Shown: positions 14,591-48,597, numbered from the stretch's first letter. The stretch is DNA of 64,000 nucleotides from a virus (IMGVR_UViG_3300027708_000013); one strand, 5' to 3'. A program made the numbers and translations. Notes: generated from the letters alone by a model not told the origin.

Positions 14591-14612
14591 AAAAAACCCG
14601 CCGAAGCGGGTT
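14591..14612 (-). terminator. intrinsic terminator of the tmRNA
   Basis: AACCCGC-TTCG-GCGGGTT followed by a T-run. Confidence 0.85.
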
Positions 14613-14921
14613 CTGCTATTTTTGGTAATAAGGTATAACTACCCCAGAGATCATGCCGCTAGGGCGTAAACCTCATCATTAGATGCGTTTGCATTTATCG
14701 ATTTGCTTGATTTACAGTCATCGCCTACTGTGTTGCCGTCTCCATTACCTACCCCTGTCGAAACCATGGCTGGCCCATCAGAAGAAAACTCAGATCCTTT
14801 CACGGTTGGCTCCATTACTGGTTGGCCGCAGTATGCATCCTGCTGAATTTTCTTTTGGTGGACCAGGCGGGAGTCGAACCCGCGTCCAGAAGTCCTTCAC
14901 TTTGAAGGAATTACAACAATT
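14613..14921 (-). ncRNA. ssrA: two-piece (circularly permuted) tmRNA
   Basis: Acceptor piece with T-arm GCGGG-TTCGACT-CCCGC and CTGGTCC-A-CCA ending at 14856 comes first; 5' GGGCCAG starts at 14776 and gives a G3.U70 acceptor stem; tag at 14651-14692 encodes ANASNDEVYALAA*. Confidence 0.92.
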
Positions 14922-14924
14922 CTT

Positions 14925-15071
14925 TTAATTATAACCACGTATGACATTGTTGTCAATGGGTGGATTTGATCTTGCCAATTCTCGTTTAACAGCTTCTTGA
15001 TGTTGCTGTTCTTTTTTCTGCTTGTTCTGTTCAAACTTCTGAAGTATCACAACTTCTTCTTTGTGTGGCAT
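14925..15071 (-). CDS. small hypothetical protein
   Basis: 48 aa, MPHKEEVV...; CTAAATA box 8 nt above the ATG. Confidence 0.45.
   Translation of the reverse strand: MPHKEEVVILQKFEQNKQKKEQQHQEAVKRELARSNPPIDNNVIRGYN
14928..14956 (-). promoter_or_regulatory. consensus sigma70 promoter for the tmRNA
   Basis: TTGACA-17-TATAAT. Confidence 0.9.
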
Positions 15072-36470: not shown

Positions 36471-36752
36471 ATGGGTGATATATTTAAGGTCATAGGCGAT
36501 CTAGGAATGCCAGTGGTTGCAGCATTGGCGGGAGGATACTTTGTGTATCTCACATTGAAATTGTTATTGGCTGGAGTACTCAGCAACATCAAAAGCATGG
36601 CCGGTATCATTACAGCCCTGGACAATAGAGTTAAAACAATGAATCATGATGTCATAAGAATTGACACTGTGGTGTCAAATGCACTAGGATTAAAACCAGA
36701 TGTAGAACGCATTAGTCGTGCAGATGGTAAGTCAGATGCGAGACGCGACTAA
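36471..36752 (+). CDS. small membrane protein, paralog of 36931..37242
   Basis: TM helix plus LDNRVKTMNHDVIRI. Confidence 0.7.
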   Translation: MGDIFKVIGDLGMPVVAALAGGYFVYLTLKLLLAGVLSNIKSMAGIITALDNRVKTMNHDVIRIDTVVSNALGLKPDVERISRADGKSDARRD

Positions 36753-36931
36753 TGAAACACTGGGACTACGAGTGGGACATTTACCCTAACTATCTACTAA
36801 TAGATCGCGAGTTAAATTTAGATTGCTTGGGATGGAAAGCAGGAGATCTATTTAGACTTGAAAATTATAATGGTCAGCCCATGCTTAAAAAAGTTGACCC
36901 TGTGGAAAAATTTGTAAGAGGATACGAGTAA
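36752..36931 (+). CDS. small hypothetical protein (not in the supplied track)
   Basis: 59 aa, MKHWDYEWD...; TAATG overlaps at both ends. Confidence 0.6.
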   Translation: MKHWDYEWDIYPNYLLIDRELNLDCLGWKAGDLFRLENYNGQPMLKKVDPVEKFVRGYE

Positions 36932-37242
36932 TGGACATTGTAGAACTGGTAAACAAATATGGATTCCCTGTTGTAATGATGGTGGGCCTGGGCTATATTA
37001 TAAAATATGTATGGGAATGGGCAACAAAAGAAGTTAAACCTGTTATCTCAGATGCCAACACTGTGCTTATTGCACTGATTGACCGTATTCGTATGTTGGA
37101 CAACGATCTTATCAGATTGAATCAAAAGGTCAATACTGTGTTACACTTACGTGGCAAAAGCATCGAGCATGAACGTGTAGCAGCTGAACGAGAAATTAAC
37201 AAAACTGTTGATGATCGAGAAGCCTCGGGCGGTAACGGTTAA
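36931..37242 (+). CDS. small membrane protein, paralog of 36471..36752
   Basis: TM helix plus LIDRIRMLDNDLIRL. Confidence 0.7.
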   Translation: MDIVELVNKYGFPVVMMVGLGYIIKYVWEWATKEVKPVISDANTVLIALIDRIRMLDNDLIRLNQKVNTVLHLRGKSIEHERVAAEREINKTVDDREASGGNG

Positions 37243-39252
37243 TTACTTGCTGGTGGCACGGTAGGTGCCTGACCAGTCTTTAGGCACACCTTCTGCCAAT
37301 CTCAAGCTCATGCTTTTGTAGTACTCAGTTAACTCTGGCGATTGATTCGTACAATACTCTACCATTTGTAGTGCCTTCTTCCAGTTGCCAGCATAGTAGT
37401 GTCTTAAAAACTCTTGATGACCCAATTTAGTTTCAGCCAGTGTATAAATTTTTACACCTTGAGTTTTACCTTTTACAGCAATACAATCTAGTTCGGCTAC
37501 GGGATATGTATCTTTTACCAATTCCGCAGTGCGTTGACCAAGTACAATTTTGACACCGTACGGCTTGCTTTGTCCTTCCAGTCTACTCGCCAAATTGACG
37601 CCATCGCCCAAGCAAGTATAGTCAAAGCGTTGATCAGATCCCATGTTACCCACCACAACACTTGCACTGTTGATGCCAAGCCCCATGCCAAAAGCCGGCA
37701 CACCTTCTGCTGTAATTTCTCTATTAAATTCATCCAAACTCTCCATCATTTCCAACGCTGTGCGTACTGCGTCTACCGCATGTTGTGGGTTATCTAACGG
37801 TGCGTTCCAAAATGCCATCTGTGCATCACCAATGTATTTGTCCAGTGTGCCTTTGTTCTCAAGTATACGTTTGGTCATTGCTGTCATGTAACGATTCATG
37901 ATCTTTGTAAGACCCTGTACATCTGCTCCGTAATGTTCACTAATGGTGGTGAATCCACGCACATCGGTAAACATGATGGACAGTTCACGTTCCTCACCAC
38001 CCAAGGTCAACAGTTCTGGTTGACGCTGTAACTGTGCCACTAGGTCCGGACTTAGATAAGTTCCAAACTGCCGTTTAATCTGTTGTTTTTGTAGGAACTC
38101 GCTTACAAATTTAACACCATAGGCATGAAGCATAACCAGTACAAGGCCAGCGACCAAACCAGTAACATCAATAAGCCAATGGTACTGCGAGTAAGCCAAC
38201 TGGCTAGCAAAAACAACCCCCACAACAACCCCCACACTAGATATGATTCCCACATACATCCACCTCGTTAAAAATAGTAGTACTACTGCCAACACAGCCA
38301 ATCCCGCAAGTTCTGCACCATCTGCCCAAGCGGGTCTTTGTATATTTACACCACGAGCCACAGTTGCTATTACTGCAGCCTGTACGTCTTGTGGCCACAC
38401 AGCACCCACAGCAGTGGGCACTGGATTTGCTATGCCCGCGGCCGTAACCCCCACTATCACTATAGAATTATCGAACGTGTTGGGCAAATCTGTCATACTG
38501 ACCGCACGACTGCGTTGACTCCAGTCAATCCAAATTCTTCCTGACCTGTCAGTGTCAAGTATGCCTATACCACCGGGTCCACGCATCTTTTCAATACCCA
38601 ACTCACTCATTTTGATTTGAAAGTTAGTGTTGCCCTCTGCTGTCATCAGTGTGGCTAAACTGGCAGATGGATACAAGTTGCCATCAATTGCTACTACCAA
38701 GGGCATGCGACGAACAACACCATCAATTTCTGGCAGTGTGTTAACTATGCCCGAGCTTGCCGCAGCAAACTCTAAAGCAGGAATGTTTGCTATCATGCCG
38801 GGATAAGTGACTATGAGTTCGCCGTGATTGCTTCCAATAACGCTGGAGCCGGGTGGGCGTGGTGTGTTTTTATTTTGACCTGCAGGAATGTTGCTGAGTA
38901 CTACCGGATACTTCTTCAATACTTGAATCAGTGCGGCATCACCACCGGATCTATCCCGTTCACTCATTACAATGTTAAACACCACTAAGCCGGCACCTCT
39001 TTTGTAAAGGTCTCGGATCAAGTCAGCATACACACGCCGATCAAAAGGATACTGCCCATGCTGTGCTAGTGCGGCTTCGTCTATATTAATTGTGTAAATG
39101 TTGTTTAGTGTGGGTGCTTTGGCAGTGATTACAGTGTCAAAATATCTTAGTCTTACACTTTCAACAAATGTAGGATCTGCAATTCTAACGGCCAACACTA
39201 GTGCCAGTGTAAGCAAGGCTGTCCAAGGTGAGGTTAATATTTTTTTCATCAT
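37243..39252 (-). CDS. CHASE2-domain class III adenylate/guanylate cyclase
   Basis: INIDEAAL...PFDR (CHASE2), three TM helices, MFTDVRGFT, DKYIGDA, YTCLGDGVNLASRLE. Confidence 0.93.
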   Translation of the reverse strand: MMKKILTSPWTALLTLALVLAVRIADPTFVESVRLRYFDTVITAKAPTLNNIYTINIDEAALAQHGQYPFDRRVYADLIRDLYKRGAGLVVFNIVMSERDRSGGDAALIQVLKKYPVVLSNIPAGQNKNTPRPPGSSVIGSNHGELIVTYPGMIANIPALEFAAASSGIVNTLPEIDGVVRRMPLVVAIDGNLYPSASLATLMTAEGNTNFQIKMSELGIEKMRGPGGIGILDTDRSGRIWIDWSQRSRAVSMTDLPNTFDNSIVIVGVTAAGIANPVPTAVGAVWPQDVQAAVIATVARGVNIQRPAWADGAELAGLAVLAVVLLFLTRWMYVGIISSVGVVVGVVFASQLAYSQYHWLIDVTGLVAGLVLVMLHAYGVKFVSEFLQKQQIKRQFGTYLSPDLVAQLQRQPELLTLGGEERELSIMFTDVRGFTTISEHYGADVQGLTKIMNRYMTAMTKRILENKGTLDKYIGDAQMAFWNAPLDNPQHAVDAVRTALEMMESLDEFNREITAEGVPAFGMGLGINSASVVVGNMGSDQRFDYTCLGDGVNLASRLEGQSKPYGVKIVLGQRTAELVKDTYPVAELDCIAVKGKTQGVKIYTLAETKLGHQEFLRHYYAGNWKKALQMVEYCTNQSPELTEYYKSMSLRLAEGVPKDWSGTYRATSK

Positions 39253-40133
39253 TGTATTTTAAACTTTACGTATTCTGTAATTAAATCAGCCACATCTACA
39301 CCACAATAGGTTTCAAATCCCAAAAATCCTGGATTACTGTTGGCCTCGCATACTCTAAAACCTCTGGTGTCGAACAGGAGGTCTATGCCGGCTATGTCCA
39401 AGTTCAGTGCCTTGGCAGTTTCTCTGGCTAAAAAATCTATTTCTTCTGTAACTTCAAAGTTTGAACCAGTGCCACCATTGGTGATGTTGGCACGAAAATC
39501 GCCTTCGGGTGCTGTGCGTTTCATTGCACCTATTACTTTGCCACCTATCACCAGCACACGTAGATCTTCGCCCACACGTTCACCGAGATATTCTTGTACT
39601 ATCAATGTTTTTTTATTGCCTAGATTTTTAATAAACTCCATGAGCTTTTTAAAATCTCTACTGCGTTCGCAGAGATAAACCCCTTCGCCGTACGATCCTG
39701 TAACAACCTTGACCACACAGGGAAATCCTATGTTTTCTTTAACCAAAGTCTCGTCTATGGGGAAACGCACCATCATGGTGTTGGGAATGGGTATACCGTG
39801 GCGGCTTAGAATCTGGCTGGTACGCAGTTTGTCTTTTACAGTTTCTATAGCAGTGGCGCCATTTACACAGGGTACACCGGCTTGTTCAAAATGACGCACC
39901 ACAGCCAACTGAAATGGTAGTATGCCGGCGCCCAATCGTACTAGGACTAGTTTGGGCATTTCAATGGTTTCACCTCGCAGTTTGATGCCTTGACGTATGT
40001 TACGATCCACAATGATGTCAAAATCATCAGGGTGTGCCATCACAGCATCAATGTTCTTTTTAGCAAAACTCTCCATTAATCGCTCGCACTCGTATTCGTT
40101 GCGATCTAATTTAGTTAATATCAACACTGTCAT
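39249..40133 (-). CDS. RimK-family ATP-grasp ligase
   Basis: KDKLRT, PCVVKVVTGSYGEGV, IVQEY, DFRANI, EANSNPG. Confidence 0.9.
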   Translation of the reverse strand: MTVLILTKLDRNEYECERLMESFAKKNIDAVMAHPDDFDIIVDRNIRQGIKLRGETIEMPKLVLVRLGAGILPFQLAVVRHFEQAGVPCVNGATAIETVKDKLRTSQILSRHGIPIPNTMMVRFPIDETLVKENIGFPCVVKVVTGSYGEGVYLCERSRDFKKLMEFIKNLGNKKTLIVQEYLGERVGEDLRVLVIGGKVIGAMKRTAPEGDFRANITNGGTGSNFEVTEEIDFLARETAKALNLDIAGIDLLFDTRGFRVCEANSNPGFLGFETYCGVDVADLITEYVKFKIQ

Positions 40134-40885
40134 TGAATTTCATTCCAAGTTACTATTTCCCAACTGCCGTCCCAATTTTCCACAAGAGCCGAGCAACTTT
40201 CTACCCAGTCCCCATCGTTCATGTACACAATGCCTTCTATGTCACGTATTTCTGCTGTGTGTATGTGTCCACATATTATACCATCGTAACCCTTGCTTCT
40301 ACAATAGTTGGCCAATAATCGTTCAAAATTTAATATATACGCCACTGCCTGTTTGGTATTGTGTTTGATCCATTTGCTCATGCTCCAGTAGGGCAAGCCT
40401 AACCAACTGCGAACCACAGCATGATAATCATTGAGTTTGATAATAATGTCGTATAACTTGTCACCAATGTGCATGAGCCAACGTCCCGAACTGGCATGCA
40501 TCAAACTGTCAAACATGTCTCCGTGTACTATTAGATATCTATTGCCATCTAATCCTACATGTTCATAGCGATTCACCACAGTTAAATTGCCCAGTACCGG
40601 AATAAAATGCAACCATTTTCTTAAAACTTCGTCATGGTTGCCTACGACATAAACAACCTGTGTGCCTTTTTTAGCAATTTTTAATATTTTACGTATGATG
40701 TCGGAATGACTTTCGGGCCAATACCACGATTGACTCAATCGCCAACCATCAACAATGTCGCCTACCAAGTAAAGATGGTCTGCTGTGTTGTGTTTGAGAA
40801 AATTCTTTAACAGCTCGGCCTTGCAACCTCTACTGCCTAAATGTACATCGCTGATTGATATGGTTCTATACTTGTTTTTTGACAT
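40130..40885 (-). CDS. UDP-2,3-diacylglucosamine hydrolase-like metallophosphoesterase
   Basis: DVHLG, GDIVD, GNHD, HGD, GHIH, NDGDW. Confidence 0.85.
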   Translation of the reverse strand: MSKNKYRTISISDVHLGSRGCKAELLKNFLKHNTADHLYLVGDIVDGWRLSQSWYWPESHSDIIRKILKIAKKGTQVVYVVGNHDEVLRKWLHFIPVLGNLTVVNRYEHVGLDGNRYLIVHGDMFDSLMHASSGRWLMHIGDKLYDIIIKLNDYHAVVRSWLGLPYWSMSKWIKHNTKQAVAYILNFERLLANYCRSKGYDGIICGHIHTAEIRDIEGIVYMNDGDWVESCSALVENWDGSWEIVTWNEIQ

Positions 40886-40903
40886 GATGTTTGATAAAAA
40901 CAG

Positions 40904-41188
40904 TTACAGAGATTTGCCGAGTTTTTTTACACCAAAAGCCAACCCACAAGCATATTCTCCTTGCAATTCTACCAAGGTCCAAGTGCCAGTAGTTTCATTA
41001 CGAAACATTACAACCATACTTTTTTTATCGTTCTGCAGATTATAGTCCGTAAATGTCGGAACTTCTCCGTATCGTTTCAGCTCCTTAATAGCCAGTTCAA
41101 CTGGCGCACAAGTAACAGGTTTAAATGTTTCAATGTTTTGTGCCGATACAACAACAGGGAACATAAGTGCGAGCAAGAGTTTTTGCAT
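40904..41188 (-). CDS. secreted hypothetical protein
   Basis: MQKLLLAL signal peptide. Confidence 0.6.
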   Translation of the reverse strand: MQKLLLALMFPVVVSAQNIETFKPVTCAPVELAIKELKRYGEVPTFTDYNLQNDKKSMVVMFRNETTGTWTLVELQGEYACGLAFGVKKLGKSL

Positions 41189-41251
41189 AGTGGATCCAAT
41201 CAATTTACAGTATTTATTGAGCGTTAACACCCTGTTGTAAAAACGTATGGT

Positions 41252-41821
41252 TTAATTGCGTATATAACTATAATTGCCGCAACCGGAACTGCATTGTATC
41301 GACATACTGCCTTGATTGGCCTGTGTGGGACTAGTCTGTTGTACAGTGACCGTGGCACCCAAGGCACCATTTAAGTTTAAATCAAACGTTTTATTAGCAC
41401 CTACACCACCGCTTTGTGTAACATCTACTGTGTTGTTGTTGTTTGTTGTTCCGGTTGCATTGGTTATAGTTAAATTATGTGCACCGGCACCGGTTTGACT
41501 GATATTGAAGTTGTTAGCAGATCCTGAGAGATTTTGTATAGCGGCTGTGTGATTACCACTGCCATCTTGAAATAGTACAACTCCATTGTTAATGCCCGAA
41601 ACAATTTCAACGCCGACTGTTTTGGCGCCTGTGCCCTGTTGCGTGATTGAAATATTGGTATAGTCCACTGATGAAGTGTTGCCTAGATTAACTGTGGTAC
41701 TGTGGTTGTTGCCATCTTGAATTATTGTGGTAGTGTTATTATTACCAATTTGATCAATGTTGATAGTGTTGTCTGCGGCCCAGGCAACATTAAGCATCAA
41801 TAATAATAATAATTTTTTCAT
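41252..41821 (-). CDS. curlin-repeat-like secreted protein
   Basis: Signal peptide plus repeated x-Q-x-G-x-N/H units (IDQIGNNN, IIQDGNNH, ISQTGAGAH). Confidence 0.7.
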   Translation of the reverse strand: MKKLLLLLMLNVAWAADNTINIDQIGNNNTTTIIQDGNNHSTTVNLGNTSSVDYTNISITQQGTGAKTVGVEIVSGINNGVVLFQDGSGNHTAAIQNLSGSANNFNISQTGAGAHNLTITNATGTTNNNNTVDVTQSGGVGANKTFDLNLNGALGATVTVQQTSPTQANQGSMSIQCSSGCGNYSYIRN

Positions 41822-42942
41822 TTTTGTATCACTGTAATCACAGTACTGTTGCCTGAATTCACACGATTTTTAAAATCCAATACACCTTGTGTCATGTAGA
41901 TAGTAGTGTTTTGTGTAGCAGGTACAGTTACACTCATTACATTGCTACCATCGTCACGTGCTAAAGTTATCTTGGGCTCTTGTATATCAACAGTAATGCC
42001 ACTGATAGCATTGTAGTCGGGCAATAATTTATTACTAGTTGTGTTTAATAAATTTAATTGTGCTTTCATTTGAGCATCCACAATGTCAAGAATATTAGCA
42101 AGGAAATTTTGATCAAGAAAGTTACGGGCAAGTTTGTCCTGGAATACTTCTCGAGCCTGTGCGTCTAAAGCATTGGCTAGTCCTTGCTCTTTGAGAAAAT
42201 CCATATCCAATGCAGATTTCATTTCCATTCGAGTAGTAGTTCGATCTTCTTTATTAAGTTCCTTGGGAGGTGATACAATTAACATATTATTAATGGCATC
42301 TTCACTAAGTCGAAGGATAACTGGTTTTGGCGGAGGATTATTACGTGACTCTACCTTGATTGCTTGAAATGCTATATTAAGTGTAACAATGCCGGCATCA
42401 GTAGTAACATCGATGGCACCTGTTACACATTCGTCTATACTTTGATATCCAAGACGACAGCTGGGCAATAAAATAATTGTACTGGTCCCTAACTCGTCAA
42501 CTGTGGCAGTAAAATCAGTTCCGCGAACAGCAATGGTTGCTGTGGGCGTGTTAATAGATACTTTATTAGCCGGATTATGTGCTATAACGCCTGAAGCATA
42601 TCTCACTGTGCCTGCGGCCATGTTGAGTGCTAATTTTCCAGCACTGGGTTTTTTAGGATCGTAAACAAAATCATCAATGATCAAACGACTATTTTCATTT
42701 ACTTGTACTCGAGTGTCATCTGCAAATGTAATGCCAACTTTACCCTGGGCTGTCCGTACGGTGTCGTTCATCTCCATCCCAGTGCCCTTGTTCGCTGTCA
42801 GTGTCGTTGTTGAGCGTTGTATTGAACCCGGACTGTTTATTTGTTCTGTCACTGTTCCTATTGCCGCTATGCAATTCAGTGATGTACTCATCAAGAGTAC
42901 GCATAATACGTCCGTCCATATTAGTCTCCTGGTCTGAATCAT
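41818..42942 (-). CDS. FecR-domain periplasmic protein
   Basis: DTVRT...ITFADDTRVQVNENS, INTPTATIAVRGTDF. Confidence 0.85.
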   Translation of the reverse strand: MIQTRRLIWTDVLCVLLMSTSLNCIAAIGTVTEQINSPGSIQRSTTTLTANKGTGMEMNDTVRTAQGKVGITFADDTRVQVNENSRLIIDDFVYDPKKPSAGKLALNMAAGTVRYASGVIAHNPANKVSINTPTATIAVRGTDFTATVDELGTSTIILLPSCRLGYQSIDECVTGAIDVTTDAGIVTLNIAFQAIKVESRNNPPPKPVILRLSEDAINNMLIVSPPKELNKEDRTTTRMEMKSALDMDFLKEQGLANALDAQAREVFQDKLARNFLDQNFLANILDIVDAQMKAQLNLLNTTSNKLLPDYNAISGITVDIQEPKITLARDDGSNVMSVTVPATQNTTIYMTQGVLDFKNRVNSGNSTVITVIQK

Positions 42943-42943
42943 G

Positions 42944-43858
42944 TTATCTAATAGCTGGCAATGTAACCGGTGCTGTTAATAAGGGCACACCAGAACCTTG
43001 ACTGATATTAACTGTGTTGCTGTTACCGCTAATTTTTACGTTGGCATCATTGGTGGAGCCACCGCCAGCACCTTGATTAATACCAACCCAGTTACTACTA
43101 CCAGTTAAGCCAATGTTGGCCGAGTTGTTGCTACCGTTTTGTACTACAGTAACAGCATTGTCGTTACCAACCAAGGCATCACCACTGGCATAACCTGCTA
43201 TAGATGTGGTATTACCGGCGCCGTTTTGTTTAATGTCAAACGAGTTAGCAATCCCATCAGCGTTGATACCAATTGTGTTGGTGCCGCCGGCTTGATCAGT
43301 GACAACTGTATTTTGTCCGCCAGTTGATAATGATACATTAACGGAGGTAGAGTTATCTCTGATCTTGGTTTGTACATTATCGCCTTGGCCCTCTGTAGTT
43401 ACACTAACAGTATTACCTGAACCTTGTACATCAGCTTTAAAGTTTGCACCGCCTCCGGTTTGAGTGACATCAATTTGAATATTAGATGCTGTGCCTTGAC
43501 CACTGGCATTGACGTCAATTAATGCTGTGTTGTTATTGCCGCCTGACACACTGTAGTTAATGTTGGCCGATACACCGTTAGTAGTTGTTGCAGTAACCCC
43601 AAGTGATAATGTGTTGCCTGCTCCGACTTGGTTTACATTAATTTGTGAATTACTTCCGTTGAGAGTTGCGGCATCTTGCCCTTTGACCCCTGGTGCTCCA
43701 TTGACAATACCTTTGACAGTGTTGCCTGTTCCATCTTGTGTTATATTGATTACGGCATTGTCGCCTGCTTGATCAATATAGATGCTGTTGTCCACAGCAA
43801 TCACATGTGCCGATATCATCATGGCCATTATTGTTGTTATTATTCTAGCTTTTTTCAT
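42944..43858 (-). CDS. curlin-repeat-like secreted protein
   Basis: Signal peptide, NSIYIDQAGDN, TQDGTGN, NQVGAGN, KQNGAGN, VQNGSNN repeats. Confidence 0.75.
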   Translation of the reverse strand: MKKARIITTIMAMMISAHVIAVDNSIYIDQAGDNAVINITQDGTGNTVKGIVNGAPGVKGQDAATLNGSNSQINVNQVGAGNTLSLGVTATTTNGVSANINYSVSGGNNNTALIDVNASGQGTASNIQIDVTQTGGGANFKADVQGSGNTVSVTTEGQGDNVQTKIRDNSTSVNVSLSTGGQNTVVTDQAGGTNTIGINADGIANSFDIKQNGAGNTTSIAGYASGDALVGNDNAVTVVQNGSNNSANIGLTGSSNWVGINQGAGGGSTNDANVKISGNSNTVNISQGSGVPLLTAPVTLPAIR

Positions 43859-43887
43859 TTTTAATTCTCCTTGGCTCTTATTGGCCA

Positions 43888-44688
43888 TTATTCTGAACCC
43901 TTGGGTTCTTGAAAATCCCACACCGCCTTTCGTTGACCTTCTTTAATTAATTCCACCACGGCCGCTTCAATTGTTGCTTTGACGGCCAACGTACCGGGTT
44001 CATTGATTGTTAGTCCGGTTTCAAATTCAAATGCCTGTGTACCATTATCTAAAAATTTCAGCACTGCTACACTGTCGGCAGTGCTGTACACTAATTTTGT
44101 CACAGTGACTGCTGCCAATATCTTGCCGGTGTTGACTGATACAGCACGTAGGCTCACTGTGACAATATCTTTACTGTACTGGGTTTGTGTACCAATACCT
44201 AAAAATCTATGTGCCGCTCCTCCAGATTCCATGCCGGTGTCGTAACCAATGATACCACCTTCCATGATGATGCCGGCAAACTGCAAGGGCATGAGTGGTT
44301 TGGCATCTTTGCCTTCGTAGGCTTCACGCATTTGTTTCACTATCATGCGTTCTTTGGTAAGTGCGTCAATGTTTACTCGTTCCACTACTTCAAACCAAGC
44401 ACCATGTCCTACATCTTGTAGTGCTTTGATTAAGAATACTTCACCGCCCTGTGTCACCGCTGTTGACAAACTGGCAATGCCGGGAGTGGGTCTACGTTGA
44501 CCTGTTTTGTCGGCAAACTGATACACAGCCACACTTAATCGTTTACCACCACTTGGAGGAGGTACTGCGTCAAATTCTTTTTGCATGACATTGGCAGCTA
44601 CTCGAGGCTCAAATCGAAATCCTGCCTTTTGAGTCACAGCACATCCACTGAGCAAAGCCACTATTAATAAAGATAAGATCAGTTTCAT
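43888..44688 (-). CDS. csgG: curli secretion channel lipoprotein CsgG-like
   Basis: LSGC lipobox, VAVYQFADKTGQ, STAVTQG, WFEVVER, EGGIIGYD. Confidence 0.9.
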   Translation of the reverse strand: MKLILSLLIVALLSGCAVTQKAGFRFEPRVAANVMQKEFDAVPPPSGGKRLSVAVYQFADKTGQRRPTPGIASLSTAVTQGGEVFLIKALQDVGHGAWFEVVERVNIDALTKERMIVKQMREAYEGKDAKPLMPLQFAGIIMEGGIIGYDTGMESGGAAHRFLGIGTQTQYSKDIVTVSLRAVSVNTGKILAAVTVTKLVYSTADSVAVLKFLDNGTQAFEFETGLTINEPGTLAVKATIEAAVVELIKEGQRKAVWDFQEPKGSE

Positions 44689-44689
44689 A

Positions 44690-45154
44690 TCAATTTCCAA
44701 ATTGGAACGAACCCAAGGGTACAGTTACCTGTGTTTGATTGCCCACGGAGTCTGTCACAGTCATGTAAATATTACCACTGTCCCGACTCCAAAATATAGT
44801 ATTACCTTCAAAATTCATTGTGCCCGACGTACTACCACCTGACGCAAACATGGCAGTGGCTAAATTTTGACTGATCTGTGCATAGATACGACTTTCCAAG
44901 TTGTTCATAAACTTGCTGATATTGGTATTGGCTGCTTCTGCTCGGGCTTTATCCAATGCGGACTGTATGTCTTTGGCCACTTGCTGTCTACGAGTGTATT
45001 CTTGATTTTCAATCGTGAGAATATGACTGCTATAGCCGGACCCGTTAAAACTGGGACTTTTAAATGAATAGTCTGCTATAGGAGTGGCAAAGGCAAAAGG
45101 TGCCCATACTATGGCACCAAATGCTAGATAAAACTTATTATAATTTTTATACAT
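44690..45154 (-). CDS. csgF: curli assembly protein CsgF-like
   Basis: Signal peptide, FKSPSFNG, FMNNLESRIYAQIS, TVTDSVGNQTQVTVP; adjacent to csgG. Confidence 0.75.
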   Translation of the reverse strand: MYKNYNKFYLAFGAIVWAPFAFATPIADYSFKSPSFNGSGYSSHILTIENQEYTRRQQVAKDIQSALDKARAEAANTNISKFMNNLESRIYAQISQNLATAMFASGGSTSGTMNFEGNTIFWSRDSGNIYMTVTDSVGNQTQVTVPLGSFQFGN

Positions 45155-45212
45155 ACTCTAGCTCCTAGTGTATTTACTAAGATTTTGAGTATGTTAATAA
45201 CGCATTAGAACG

Positions 45213-45749
45213 TTAAGTACGTTTAATGCCTAGTTGATGGTAGACATGTTGTACTGCCTGTGCTTGACTTATGCAATCTTCCAAGGCGTTGTGAAGTCCT
45301 GCTTTGTTCCGTTCACGTGGGTCACCGTGTACACCAAACAATGTTCTGCTGTCGCGAATCTGCCAATAGTTCCAAGGTATGGGGCAATCCATTTGACGAT
45401 AGAGGTTTTCCAAAATAGCAATGTCAAACACAGGACCTTGACACCAGATGTTGTCAACTCCCACCAGAAATCGGTTCAACTGTTGATACATTTCTCTCAA
45501 GGAAACTCTGTTGTGTTCGCCAAATGCTTCTTCGTATACATCTGCACTTTGCCTACTCCACCATTCCAGTGTGTCATCCTGTACTGTTCTGCCCAGGGCA
45601 GTTTGCTCATCCACATTGATTCTAAAGTAGAGACCGTTGTCACCACGGATAGTGTCACTGAATGGGTCAAACTTCACAGCACCAAGAGTCAATACCACAC
45701 AATCTGGACGTGTGCCTAGGGTTTCTAAATCAAGCATGCAAGCAGTCAT
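45213..45749 (-). CDS. DEDD 3'-5' exonuclease (Rv2179c-like)
   Basis: MLDLETLG, FDIAIL, RDSRT, HNALED. Confidence 0.85.
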   Translation of the reverse strand: MTACMLDLETLGTRPDCVVLTLGAVKFDPFSDTIRGDNGLYFRINVDEQTALGRTVQDDTLEWWSRQSADVYEEAFGEHNRVSLREMYQQLNRFLVGVDNIWCQGPVFDIAILENLYRQMDCPIPWNYWQIRDSRTLFGVHGDPRERNKAGLHNALEDCISQAQAVQHVYHQLGIKRT

Positions 45750-45755
45750 AGTGTT

Positions 45756-45784
45756 ATTATACTGGGTTATTTGGCGGTTGTCAA
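45756..45784 (-). promoter_or_regulatory. consensus sigma70 promoter, probably leaderless
   Basis: TTGACA-17-TATAAT-6-ATG. Confidence 0.85.
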
Positions 45785-46246
45785 GAGTTTTGATGATTCG
45801 GCTGCCACCACTCGTTTGCGTAGACTACTGCTACTAAACGAATGATCTCTTCCGTTGAATATGCATCGAATGTTTCTTTGAGCACAGGCTTGATCACCAC
45901 TGAAGGGTTTGCCTTCGTATTCCACACCCAACACACGTACATCAATTGGCAGAATCAACAATAGATCAATGAGATCTTGTTCGGTCTGATACACCACCAC
46001 TTCATCCACATATCTACAAGCGGCCAATTGTATCTGTCGTTCCACTACACTTTGTATGGGCGAATTTTTAGTGTCGGGTCTATCTATAGTGGGATCTGTT
46101 TGTAATCCACAAATTAAATAGTCGCAGTGATTTCTGGCTTCGGCCAACATGGCTATGTGGCCAGCATGCAACATGTCAAAGGCACTGAATGTGATGCCAA
46201 TGATTTTACCCTGTTCTTTCAGTGTTCTAACTTTATTGAATATCAT
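45767..46246 (-). CDS. cytidylyltransferase (TagD-like)
   Basis: FDMLHAGH (HxGH), CRYVDEV, RDHSFSSSSLR. Confidence 0.9.
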   Translation of the reverse strand: MIFNKVRTLKEQGKIIGITFSAFDMLHAGHIAMLAEARNHCDYLICGLQTDPTIDRPDTKNSPIQSVVERQIQLAACRYVDEVVVYQTEQDLIDLLLILPIDVRVLGVEYEGKPFSGDQACAQRNIRCIFNGRDHSFSSSSLRKRVVAAESSKLLTTAK

Positions 46247-46249
46247 TTA

Positions 46250-47671
46250 TTATTTTCCTTGAATATTATTTTGATCTTTGAGAAATGCGTATAACAATAT
46301 CTGACCACTGGGTTTTATTCCTGTAAGAACAGCTGGCAAATTAAAATATTTTACACTCTCAACACAATGTTCCGGGGATACATTTTTAGCAATTGACTCA
46401 TTGAGTACAGCAAGATCGGTATTCAATGTCGAATCAAACAATGCCAAATAGATTTTGTTATTAGTAAAATCTGGAACCAATTGAAAATTAGTTGGATGGT
46501 AACAAGTACGTAGGTAATTTTCTAACTCTTGTATATAAACAGTCTTATTGTCTATAGTAAATGAATATGTACGACCTTGATAGAACAACTTATCATCATC
46601 CTCTACAAACCCATCAGCAAGTGTGTGCCATTCGTACCCAGTTCTCCGAGCATGAACAAGATTTTTTTCTAGTATAAATTCCAGACCAGGTGCACGTTCA
46701 GTAAACAAGTTATTTACATAATTCCTATAATTACTTTTTGTCACTCTCGAAATAAACATGGTACCTATTTCGCTACAACCAAATTGATTTATAATTTCTT
46801 TGGGATTAATATTTTCAAAAATCCAACTGCAAATATTTGCATCATATCCACGCAAAGTACGAATTGATAACTGGCCTCCCATATCTATAGGAGTTGTTTG
46901 ATCAAAATAATTAACCCATTCGTAGGGAATAATAATAGTAGTTAGTTTGTACTTTTGAATATAAGGCAGTACTAAATTTAGATAATTTTTTGCATTATAA
47001 TTTTCTCCAGTAGTAGCAGATGTCATGGTCCTGATAAAATAGTGTTCTGTTGCAACACTTAATAGGGGTAACGCATAGTCGATAAAAAGTGCCCCATGAT
47101 GGAAAGTTTTAAAATGAAAAGGACGATCTTTATCATTGTACCCGTGAAATGACGCTATTTCTCTTGTGCGATCAATTAAGTGCCGATGTGTAAAATCAAC
47201 TATTTTTGGCCTACCTGTTGTGCCGCTTGTGTGCGTTTTTATAGCCACAGTTGACGTAGATATCTCTATGCAGTCGCTATCTTCGTATTGATTAGCATTA
47301 TTGTAATTGCGTAAATTAATTGATGGCGTATCAAATGAGTTGACTGATCTCGAGGTTGCGGGGTGTGGTATTGATAAATCGATAAAATTATAAAAATCTT
47401 TGAATTCTGGTATTTGAGTAAAACCAACATTGAGATCGTGTACAAATAAATTACCGCCTAACTCCCATACAGCCAGTATTATAGGCACTACCCAATCAAA
47501 ATCATTGATGCCTACATAAATTGTTTTACTGTATGTATTGTCATTTAGTTCTTGACGTATTTGTTTTTTAAGAAAACATTTACGGTTTTGTATCTCTGAG
47601 GGGTTGATTTTTTGGCCAAAAAAATCAACCAATGAACAATCGTCCCTAATTAACTCTGATGCATTATTCAT
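46250..47671 (-). CDS. divergent adenylate-forming (ANL/acyl-CoA ligase-like) enzyme
   Basis: HTSGTTGRPK (A3), FGCSEIG (A5), D..YQGR (A7/A8); AT-rich. Confidence 0.7.
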   Translation of the reverse strand: MNNASELIRDDCSLVDFFGQKINPSEIQNRKCFLKKQIRQELNDNTYSKTIYVGINDFDWVVPIILAVWELGGNLFVHDLNVGFTQIPEFKDFYNFIDLSIPHPATSRSVNSFDTPSINLRNYNNANQYEDSDCIEISTSTVAIKTHTSGTTGRPKIVDFTHRHLIDRTREIASFHGYNDKDRPFHFKTFHHGALFIDYALPLLSVATEHYFIRTMTSATTGENYNAKNYLNLVLPYIQKYKLTTIIIPYEWVNYFDQTTPIDMGGQLSIRTLRGYDANICSWIFENINPKEIINQFGCSEIGTMFISRVTKSNYRNYVNNLFTERAPGLEFILEKNLVHARRTGYEWHTLADGFVEDDDKLFYQGRTYSFTIDNKTVYIQELENYLRTCYHPTNFQLVPDFTNNKIYLALFDSTLNTDLAVLNESIAKNVSPEHCVESVKYFNLPAVLTGIKPSGQILLYAFLKDQNNIQGK

Positions 47672-48597
47672 TGGTTGACCTGAATACCTTGTTGTTCGAT
47701 AAATTTCCGGTTATCATTGATTGTTTTTATAATAAAACGATTAAATTCGTTTGCATTTCTGGTCCAAATTTTACCATGTACTATTTCGACTATTTCTTTT
47801 ACTTCCGGAGTTTGTAAAGCCTGCATAATATCAATTTGTATTTGTTTGGCTTTATCTTTTGCTATTGATTTATTAATAAAAAATGCAATTTGTCCGTTAC
47901 TTATATTAAATTTATCACCAAAAAATTCTTGTGCAGTGGGCACATCAGGAAACGCAGGATCCTGTTTTTCAGCTGTTGTTGCTAACCAATTTAATTTACC
48001 ACTGTTACGATATTGTTTAGTAGATCCAATGCTTCCGCATGAAAATGCCAGTTCGCCGCCGGCTACATCGGCGAACCATTGGCTGTATTCTTTATACGGC
48101 ACGTGAGTAACTGATAGGCCTAACATTTTTGCCACTTCGATGCCGCAAAAATGTCCGGCAGAGCCAACCCCCCATGACCCGTAAAAAGGCCTGTCTTTAA
48201 TGATTGTACGTAAATCGTCTAGCGTTCGAATTTTGTTGTTGGTAAATATCACCCAATCATTACTATAAAATGGTGCCAATACTTGTAACTTTGCAAATTG
48301 TTCTTCTTTGTTATACAGTATAGGCATGGTACTCCAGGCACCATGATCAAGCATTAATATAGTGTGATTACTTGCAGGTTCGTTAACGTAATAGTTCAGT
48401 GCTACCACCCCTGCAGCACCGGGTCGATTTTCAATTAATACTGGGGTATTCCATTTAATAGTGAGTACTTCTGCTAACTTTCGTGCCACTGTGTCTGGTG
48501 CAGAACCCGTTGGTAGATTTAAAACTATTCTAACAGGTTCTGCGTGTGCAGACGCAACCAATAGTAAAGTTATTAAAAATTTTAATATACTTTTCAT
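47668..48597 (-). CDS. Bug/TctC substrate-binding protein
   Basis: Signal peptide, PTGSAPDTVAR, IENRPGAAG, YGSWGVGSAGH, HVPYK, PDVPT. Confidence 0.9.
   Translation of the reverse strand: MKSILKFLITLLLVASAHAEPVRIVLNLPTGSAPDTVARKLAEVLTIKWNTPVLIENRPGAAGVVALNYYVNEPASNHTILMLDHGAWSTMPILYNKEEQFAKLQVLAPFYSNDWVIFTNNKIRTLDDLRTIIKDRPFYGSWGVGSAGHFCGIEVAKMLGLSVTHVPYKEYSQWFADVAGGELAFSCGSIGSTKQYRNSGKLNWLATTAEKQDPAFPDVPTAQEFFGDKFNISNGQIAFFINKSIAKDKAKQIQIDIMQALQTPEVKEIVEIVHGKIWTRNANEFNRFIIKTINDNRKFIEQQGIQVNQ

Follow-up and report, generated by a model that had tools for sequence, protein, structure and literature searches.

A curli-type secretion module with two candidate fibre subunits in a distinct clade of large uncultured phages

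The window considered here is the whole 64,000-nucleotide (nt) stretch of DNA analyzed from the viral contig IMGVR_UViG_3300027708_000013. Between positions 41252 and 45154, its minus strand carries five tightly packed open reading frames (ORFs), csgF, csgG, cur1, fecR, and cur2, which are almost certainly a member of the known viral curli, or type VIII secretion system (T8SS), module, here carried by large uncultured phages that form a clade of their own. A reading of the locus from its sequence alone had described a csgF-like gene, csgG, curlin-repeat proteins of 304 and 189 amino acids (aa), and a FecR-domain protein; all five ORFs were recovered, and the Pfam matches of their products all exceed the gathering cut-off, which is 20.7 bits for Curlin_rpt (PF07012). 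The genes and the motif that precedes them are as follows:

45171..45176, minus strand: TAAATA box (GTAAATAC), 22 nt before the csgF ATG and ahead of an AGGAG ribosome-binding site; candidate core of a T4-type late promoter
44690..45154, minus strand: csgF, 154 aa, with a signal peptide ending AFA (PF10614, E 7e-13; phrog_35372, E 9e-63)
43888..44688, minus strand: csgG, a 266-aa predicted outer-membrane lipoprotein channel (PF03783, E 4e-45; phrog_20175, E 6e-99)
42944..43858, minus strand: cur1, a 304-aa curlin-repeat protein with an export signal (PF07012, E 5e-6, 26.8 bits)
41818..42942, minus strand: fecR, 374 aa, with a signal peptide, predicted periplasmic, FecR domain 60-154 (PF04773, E 2e-11; phrog_37870, E 3e-131)
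41252..41821, minus strand: cur2, a 189-aa curlin-repeat protein with an export signal (PF07012, E 2e-8, 34.6 bits, in two stretches)

The spacing of these genes is operon-like: a single nt separates csgF from csgG and likewise cur1 from fecR, 29 nt lie between csgG and cur1, and fecR overlaps cur2 by 4 nt (ATGA), in agreement with the single compact run described earlier. The export signals that had been attributed to all five products were likewise confirmed, as sequence reading and a hydropathy scan revealed at each N-terminus a basic and then a hydrophobic segment of the Sec-signal type; in the same scan, the cytoplasmic-type neighbors (an exoribonuclease, a metallophosphoesterase, and RimK) had no such N-terminal segment. 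Sequence, conservation, and predicted fold support the conclusion that a channel, an adaptor, and two candidate fibre subunits are all encoded. The earlier description of 41252-45154 as a complete unit holds for these components and fails for a conserved partner, an adenylate cyclase gene, which lies beyond it at 37243-39252.

The csgG ORF extends to 44700 (43888-44700), and its start was corrected to the ATG at 44688, which is most likely the true start because the 266-aa form is called on two metagenome contigs and its lipobox is well placed. This lipobox, L-S-G-C, occupies residues 13-16, after the signal sequence. CsgG aligned with the E. coli CsgG chain 3x2r over residues 8-265 (phmmer, E 7e-42), and with NCBIfam models it scored 154.6 bits for CsgG vs. 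26.6 bits for the holdfast protein HfaB. The constriction loop of the channel is retained, and its flanks, D-K-T-G-Q-R ... S-T-A-V-T-Q, are conserved. The mature N-terminus of the phage CsgF, F-K-S-P-S-F-N-G-S-G-Y, corresponds to F-R-N-P-N-F-G-G-N-P-N of the E. coli protein and fits the motif of the peptide that binds the barrel in E. coli, F-x-F-[RK]-[NS]-P-x-F-[GN]-G. This motif is kept, with occasional substitutions, in the viral homologues inspected (12 compared with E. coli CsgF, and about 50 for which the N-termini were listed). A phmmer search of CsgF against the PDB returned no CsgF chain, and the relationship rests on the Pfam profile together with the motif.

Both curlin-repeat proteins contain Q-x-G-x-x-N repeats, which in the middle of Cur2 follow one another at ~24 residues, and have an N/G/T/S/Q-rich composition resembling that of CsgA. 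The cur1 ORF reaches 43921 (42944-43921), with the 304-aa form beginning at the ATG at 43858. The mature N-terminus of Cur1 (D-N-S-I-Y-I-D-Q) is conserved and its middle is hypervariable; it has weak NCBIfam matches to CsgB and CsgA. In Cur2, Q-x-G motifs recur every ~24-27 residues in the central repeats. A pair of Cys residues within its conserved C-terminal tail is invariant among 18 homologues, most of which end in Y-I-R-N (...YSYIRN in the window). AlphaFold2 (AF2) models of the two proteins, built on alignments of 18 and 26 homologues, are confident and all-beta, with a strand-turn-strand pattern. The Cur1 model (predicted local distance difference test, pLDDT, 82; predicted template modeling score, pTM, 0.81) includes one long hairpin at 139-177, and the Cur2 model (pLDDT 77, pTM 0.75) contains 15 short strands. 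VIA-align placed the Cur2 model among beta-solenoids, with the CsgA fibril subunits 8c50 (Z 12.6, 19% identity) and 8enq (Z 11.2) in the top seven; the 8enq match aligns 110 of 111 residues with Cur2, and among the top rows sequence identity is highest for the CsgA fibril chains. A beta-solenoid prediction had been suggested as a check on the sequence-only reading, and both curlin models are indeed beta-solenoids, although CsgA fibrils are not uniquely the best structural match. The predicted curlin fold is consistent with a CsgA-type solenoid and not diagnostic of it.

Gene order was compared across 73 viral loci from IMG/VR, identified in a CsgG scan and confirmed by tblastn, and 80 fetched bacterial CsgG loci, nearly all from Alphaproteobacteria and with CsgG 41-49% identical. 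Sixty-five of the 73 viral loci preserve the order CsgF-CsgG-(Cur1)-FecR, the other eight being cut by contig ends, and two secreted curlin-repeat genes stand beside the channel gene in almost all of them. The cyclase gene was found in at least 47, counts for this gene being lower bounds that cover the fetched flank; in some relatives it is inverted or more distant. In the bacterial set, FecR and the cyclase accompany curli genes at a single locus out of 80 (L095). PHROG has dedicated families for CsgF, CsgG, FecR, and the cyclase, matched here at E 9e-63 to 2e-238.

A quick maximum-likelihood tree of 92 CsgG sequences, with supports from the Shimodaira-Hasegawa-like approximate likelihood ratio test (SH-aLRT), resolved the window's clade as monophyletic (36 distinct CsgG sequences, SH-aLRT 99) and as sister to the HTVC008M/Melnitz group (SH-aLRT 83), while the split between viral and bacterial CsgG was weakly supported (SH-aLRT 65). 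The clade comprises about 47 IMG/VR contigs, some of 230-357 kb, with CsgG 64-80% identical. Two nominally bacterial sequences fell inside viral clades: L095, a 39-kb contig of a Rhodobacterales metagenome-assembled genome (MAG) that has the full viral order with FecR and cyclase, and L075, a 6.9-kb Pirellulales MAG contig. Because of this branching, both are probably phage DNA binned into MAGs.

Within the clade, Cur1 departs from the pattern of its neighbors. Compared with the closest relative, L002, the flanks of the module are 81-88% identical at the nucleotide level and the FecR-Cur2 region 68%, while the cur1 region has no DNA similarity past the first 91 nt. Conversely, Cur1 is 75% identical in DNA and 79% in protein to that of L040, the CsgG of which is only 68% identical. 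These patterns identify Cur1 as the most variable, laterally exchanged gene of the module, and by these sequence comparisons cur1 is swapped between lineages. Its C-terminal tail also occurs in two alternative types within the clade.

The TAAATA late-like box that had been noted upstream of the module is present at 45176-45171 and is conserved among relatives. On its own, the box accounts for six of the eight positions of the T4 late consensus. In a survey of 34 distinct related upstream regions, TAAATA occurred within 70 nt of csgF in 28, mostly 21-41 nt from the ATG, as against 3.9% in background 70-nt windows, a recurrence beyond chance. Around the conserved box, the surrounding sequence and even the upstream gene vary between loci. 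This distribution supports the assignment of the box as a real T4-late-type promoter.

The minus-strand run extends past cur2 to the cyclase gene, which is its last member, and plus-strand ORFs converge on it at 37242, directly after the cyclase gene. No convincing terminator was found inside the run. Upstream of csgF lie genes for a Rv2179c-like exoribonuclease, a cytidylyltransferase-like protein, an AMP-binding enzyme, and a TctC-family receptor; Pfam searches of these upstream genes detected no histidine kinase. The further features of this region, in the order of the run, are:

45756..45784, minus strand: sigma-70 consensus (TTGACA, 17 nt, TATAAT), a 12/12 match before the Rv2179c-like exoribonuclease gene; a consensus match only
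40904..41230, minus strand: small secreted ORF, 108 aa (94 aa from the ATG at 41188), with no Pfam, NCBIfam, or PHROG match
40130..40885, minus strand: LpxH-like metallophosphoesterase, cytoplasmic (Metallophos, E 8e-15; UDP-2,3-diacylglucosamine diphosphatase, E 4e-12, below the NCBIfam cut-off)
39249..40133, minus strand: RimK-family ATP-grasp glutamate ligase, cytoplasmic (Pfam RimK, E 9e-47; TIGR00768, E 4e-68, above the cut-off)
37243..39252, minus strand: CHASE2 class III adenylate cyclase, 669 aa (CHASE2, E 7e-40; Guanylate_cyc, E 2e-20; phrog_35576, E 2e-238)

The cyclase has an N-terminal transmembrane segment, a periplasmic CHASE2 domain, a cluster of transmembrane segments at 308-384, and a cytoplasmic catalytic domain. 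Its residues D430, K472, D476, and R557 are invariant in 23 homologues; we take D430 and D476 to be the metal-binding Asp residues, K472 the substrate Lys, and R557 the transition-state Arg of the class III motifs. Prediction of a complex between the mature FecR protein and the periplasmic CHASE2 domain gave a median score of 0.00, with one run at 0.34. The C-terminal half of the FecR protein has no Pfam family. By eye, its last ~35 residues resemble one curlin strand-turn-strand unit (N-T-T-I-Y-M-T-Q-G ... T-V-I-T-V-I-Q), a pattern conserved in the clade, for which homology is unsupported. A curlin-like repeat in this segment (41821-41930), which might have capped or nucleated fibres, was accordingly rejected as a candidate: hhalign gave a probability of 4% against Cur2 and nothing against Cur1, and no Curlin_rpt match appeared at a Pfam E of 1 or less.

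Three genes, namely the small ORF, the LpxH-like phosphoesterase gene, and rimK, part cur2 from the cyclase gene. The small ORF was considered as a substitute for CsgE, CsgC, or CsgH and was discarded, having no family match and no tblastn homologue in any of the 73 viral loci; since it is unconserved in related loci, it probably lies outside the module. The phosphoesterase occurs near the module in 18 of these 73 loci and RimK in only four, and a link to envelope (lipid A) chemistry is conceivable. On the opposite strand, just past the cyclase, are two paralogous small proteins of phrog_18771 (36471-36752, plus strand, E 6e-31, and 36931-37242, plus strand, E 2e-28), each with an N-terminal transmembrane segment and then a likely coiled coil. 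A homologue is located directly upstream of csgF, on the same strand, in L003, L030, L039, and L042, such that the family tracks the borders of the module.

Elsewhere in the window, ORFs match PHROG families for ribonucleotide reductase, ATP-dependent DNA ligase, and nucleases. Nearly all genes are on one strand, the minus-strand run is nearly continuous, and the genes around the module are replication and auxiliary genes rather than structural ones. The ~40 window ORFs scanned included no lysogeny gene. Compared at the nucleotide level with 50,697 phage records, 40000-46500 gave no match, and the window is therefore not a sequenced cultured phage. A phage transfer-messenger RNA (tmRNA) is encoded at 14591-14970 (minus strand) and belongs to the Betaproteobacteria tmRNA family RF01850 (157.8 bits vs. 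a gathering score of 84); its tag peptide was given by ARAGORN as ANASNDEVYALAA. It recalls the ssrA gene of Melnitz. At 47668-48597 (minus strand), a secreted periplasmic solute receptor of the TctC/Bug family is encoded (PF03401, E 2e-30), and this family is greatly expanded in Burkholderiales. The tmRNA family and the receptor hint at a host among the Betaproteobacteria, and the phage probably infects that class rather than SAR11.

The interpretation favored here, with somewhat better than even confidence for the mechanism as a whole, is that the phage makes a curli-type machine for fibre export. The five envelope proteins would be produced during infection, probably from the TAAATA late-type promoter, and would cross the inner membrane by Sec. 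CsgG would then be lipidated and form the outer-membrane channel. Homology and the conserved motif suggest that the N-terminal peptide of CsgF enters the CsgG barrel, with the remainder of the protein at the surface. Cur1 and Cur2 would cross the channel unfolded and fold on the cell surface as stacked beta-solenoid fibres, in which the conserved Cur2, with its invariant Cys-containing tail, would nucleate or anchor the fibre, with the variable, exchanged Cur1 as its bulk, exposed building block. Given their observed linkage, FecR and the CHASE2 cyclase may constitute a co-inherited envelope-sensing branch that ends in cyclic AMP (cAMP), perhaps through contact between the two. Candidate benefits to the phage include aggregation of host cells, protection from grazers or other phages, and reprogramming through cAMP. 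From this scheme we infer that amyloid would form and that infected cells would be coated.

Several observations weigh against such fibre export. To our knowledge, no experiment demonstrates secretion, fibres, or amyloid for any phage module. In the channel, the E. coli constriction residues Y51, N55, and F56 are T, S, and L, the Phe56 position being L or F in relatives. Among the genes within 37243-48597, no Pfam, NCBIfam, or PHROG match was found to CsgE (the gate), CsgC/CsgH (the periplasmic amyloid inhibitor), or CsgD (the regulator); the absence of CsgE, CsgC, and CsgD is the part of this result that counts here. The CsgA matches of Cur2 are not above those of generic beta-helices (SufD-like, Z 13.5), with a root-mean-square deviation of ~9 Å, and Foldseek searches of the PDB with both curlin models returned nothing at E of 0.001 or less, only generic beta-helices. 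The assignment of Cur2 as candidate nucleator or anchor and of Cur1 as candidate bulk exposed subunit is proposed from conservation patterns alone. The sigma-70 match lies 600 nt upstream and is possibly an early or host RNA polymerase promoter that could allow earlier read-through into csgF. Finally, no clumping of Melnitz-infected cells was seen by Buchholz et al. (PMC9004378).

Both the missing CsgE gate and the Melnitz cultures without clumping (PMC9004378) would be accommodated if CsgG, with or without CsgF, served simply as an outer-membrane pore for lysis timing, permeabilization, or cofactor import, and the curlins were accessory envelope proteins. Roles of this kind have been proposed for Melnitz, as a pinholin- or secretin-like pore (PMC9004378), and for pelagimyophages, in uptake (PMC7029224), and cofactor import has been discussed (PMC9599517); the two small transmembrane phrog_18771 proteins that flank the module, and their homologue upstream of csgF in four relatives, are also in keeping with it. 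A pore by itself leaves unexplained why two curlin-repeat genes are kept beside the channel gene almost throughout the viral loci and why the channel-narrowing CsgF peptide is conserved, and this explanation is considered unlikely. It is also rather improbable that the module is primarily a signaling device, in which cAMP would be the real output, CsgG/CsgF and the curlins would provide an outer-membrane input, its state relayed by the periplasmic FecR protein to the CHASE2 cyclase, by analogy with FecA-FecR, and fibres would be secondary. The retention of FecR and the cyclase in viral loci, set against one bacterial locus, speaks for such a device, as do the invariant catalytic residues of the cyclase and the FecR-domain genes that accompany bacterial CHASE2 sensors (PMC5192318; see PMC5498481). 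Against it, three unrelated genes separate the cyclase gene in the window, that of some relatives is inverted or further off, there is no contact evidence among the module proteins, and the variability of Cur1 better suits an exposed structural protein.

The sequence-only reading had also raised the idea that the fibres decorate virions. Beta-helical repeats are common in phage tail spikes, and tail spikes are among the non-significant top rows from Foldseek, which would speak for curlin-repeat proteins as fibres on the capsid or tail. Nevertheless, this arrangement is highly improbable, because every component carries an export signal whereas virions assemble in the cytoplasm; the signals of Cur1 and Cur2 are predicted to be cleavable Sec signals, the two are encoded in an operon with an outer-membrane secretion channel, and the module is surrounded by replication and auxiliary genes rather than structural ones.

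If fibre export on infected cells is the function of the module, a more far-reaching and decidedly speculative extension, to which we give little credence, can be formulated. Cur1 might be the exposed face of a phage amyloid coat, under diversifying, recombination-driven exchange among co-circulating giant phages in the manner of tail fibres and receptor-binding proteins. The coat might then serve in an interaction against which other parties evolve, such as the blocking of competing phages or grazers, and FecR and the CHASE2 cyclase might keep the host cAMP regulon informed, late in infection, about secretion or the envelope. We know of no phage for which a self-monitoring surface remodeling system of this kind has been shown so far.

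The cassette itself is not new, having been annotated in HTVC008M and Melnitz and described by Wittmers et al. (2022; PMC9599517). The 2013 record of HTVC008M (KC465899) lists, in order, CsgF, CsgG, a 'curlin-associated protein (curlin minor subunit CsgB)', two hypothetical proteins, and adenylate cyclase; in tblastn, the FecR protein of the window matched the first of the two hypothetical proteins. The 2021 record of Melnitz (MZ577097) has the order CsgF, CsgG, curlin repeat, FecR domain, curlin repeat, and adenylate cyclase. In two accounts, csgA/B were written as missing (Zaragoza-Solas 2020, PMC7029224; Buchholz 2022, PMC9004378). Wittmers et al. described, in myo- and podo-pelagiphages, a viral T8SS that includes CsgA/B-like genes, FecR, and adenylate cyclase, reported that CsgC/D/E are absent from viral modules, and inferred that the module arose in Alphaproteobacteria and was passed between viral families (PMC9599517). 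Superinfection protection, aggregation by 'sibling capture', and cofactor import are discussed there. The aggregation and superinfection protection put forward in the sequence-only reading thus repeat published hypotheses, as both were proposed in that paper. What is added here is a second clade, a conserved late-type promoter, and Cur1 mosaicism, which are useful and incremental.

Should phage curli fibres form, infection would alter the sticking and sinking of planktonic bacteria, their grazing, and their access by other phages, a question that dates from 2013 and concerns phages that are among the most abundant in the ocean. With the cassette widespread in another large clade, made up of big uncultured phages with a probably betaproteobacterial host, the question applies more broadly. 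The clade also offers experimental handles in the form of shorter, simpler subunits, such as the 189-aa Cur2, and a conserved promoter; knowledge of the mechanism is unchanged.

Compared with HTVC008M and Melnitz, the module has the same order of CsgF-CsgG-curlin-FecR-curlin and then a CHASE2 cyclase, belongs to the same PHROG families, and likewise is without CsgC/D/E. It differs in that CsgG is only 44-50% identical, in its placement in a separate clade with contigs of up to 357 kb, in a Cur2 of 189 aa (vs. 338 and 441 aa) with a clade-specific Cys-containing tail, and in the three genes inserted before the cyclase gene. The modules of podo-pelagiphages have a histidine kinase directly upstream of csgF (PMC9599517), unlike that of the window.

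With the csgBAC/csgDEFG system of E. coli K-12, the module shares whole-length CsgG homology, the N-terminal motif of CsgF, and Q-x-G-x-x-N repeats of ~22-24 residues. In contrast to the two divergent operons of E. coli, it is a single operon without CsgE, CsgC, and CsgD, its subunits are longer, with irregular repeats, a FecR gene stands between the subunit genes, and NCBIfam scores are far under the equivalog cut-offs. The nearest cellular CsgG proteins, 41-49% identical, are those of alphaproteobacterial curli operons (Dueholm et al. 2012, as cited in PMC9599517), which according to PMC9599517 are likewise without CsgC/D/E. The viral module is distinguished from these operons by its FecR and cyclase genes, which are beside CsgG in only one of the 80 fetched bacterial loci.

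The pairing of a secreted FecR-domain protein with a CHASE2 transmembrane sensor has counterparts in bacteria. In S. meliloti, the genes for SMc02177 and CyaD1 are presumably neighbors. The FecR-domain gene SMc02177 belongs to the cAMP/Clr regulon, which is driven by the CHASE2 cyclase CyaD1 (PMC5498481), and in the Burkholderia 'BiofilmReg' biofilm operon a FecR-domain protein adjoins a CHASE2 sensor (PMC5192318). The Burkholderia pair has a histidine kinase output and a FecR protein with LysM, whereas the pair in the window has a class III cyclase and is encoded inside a curli operon.

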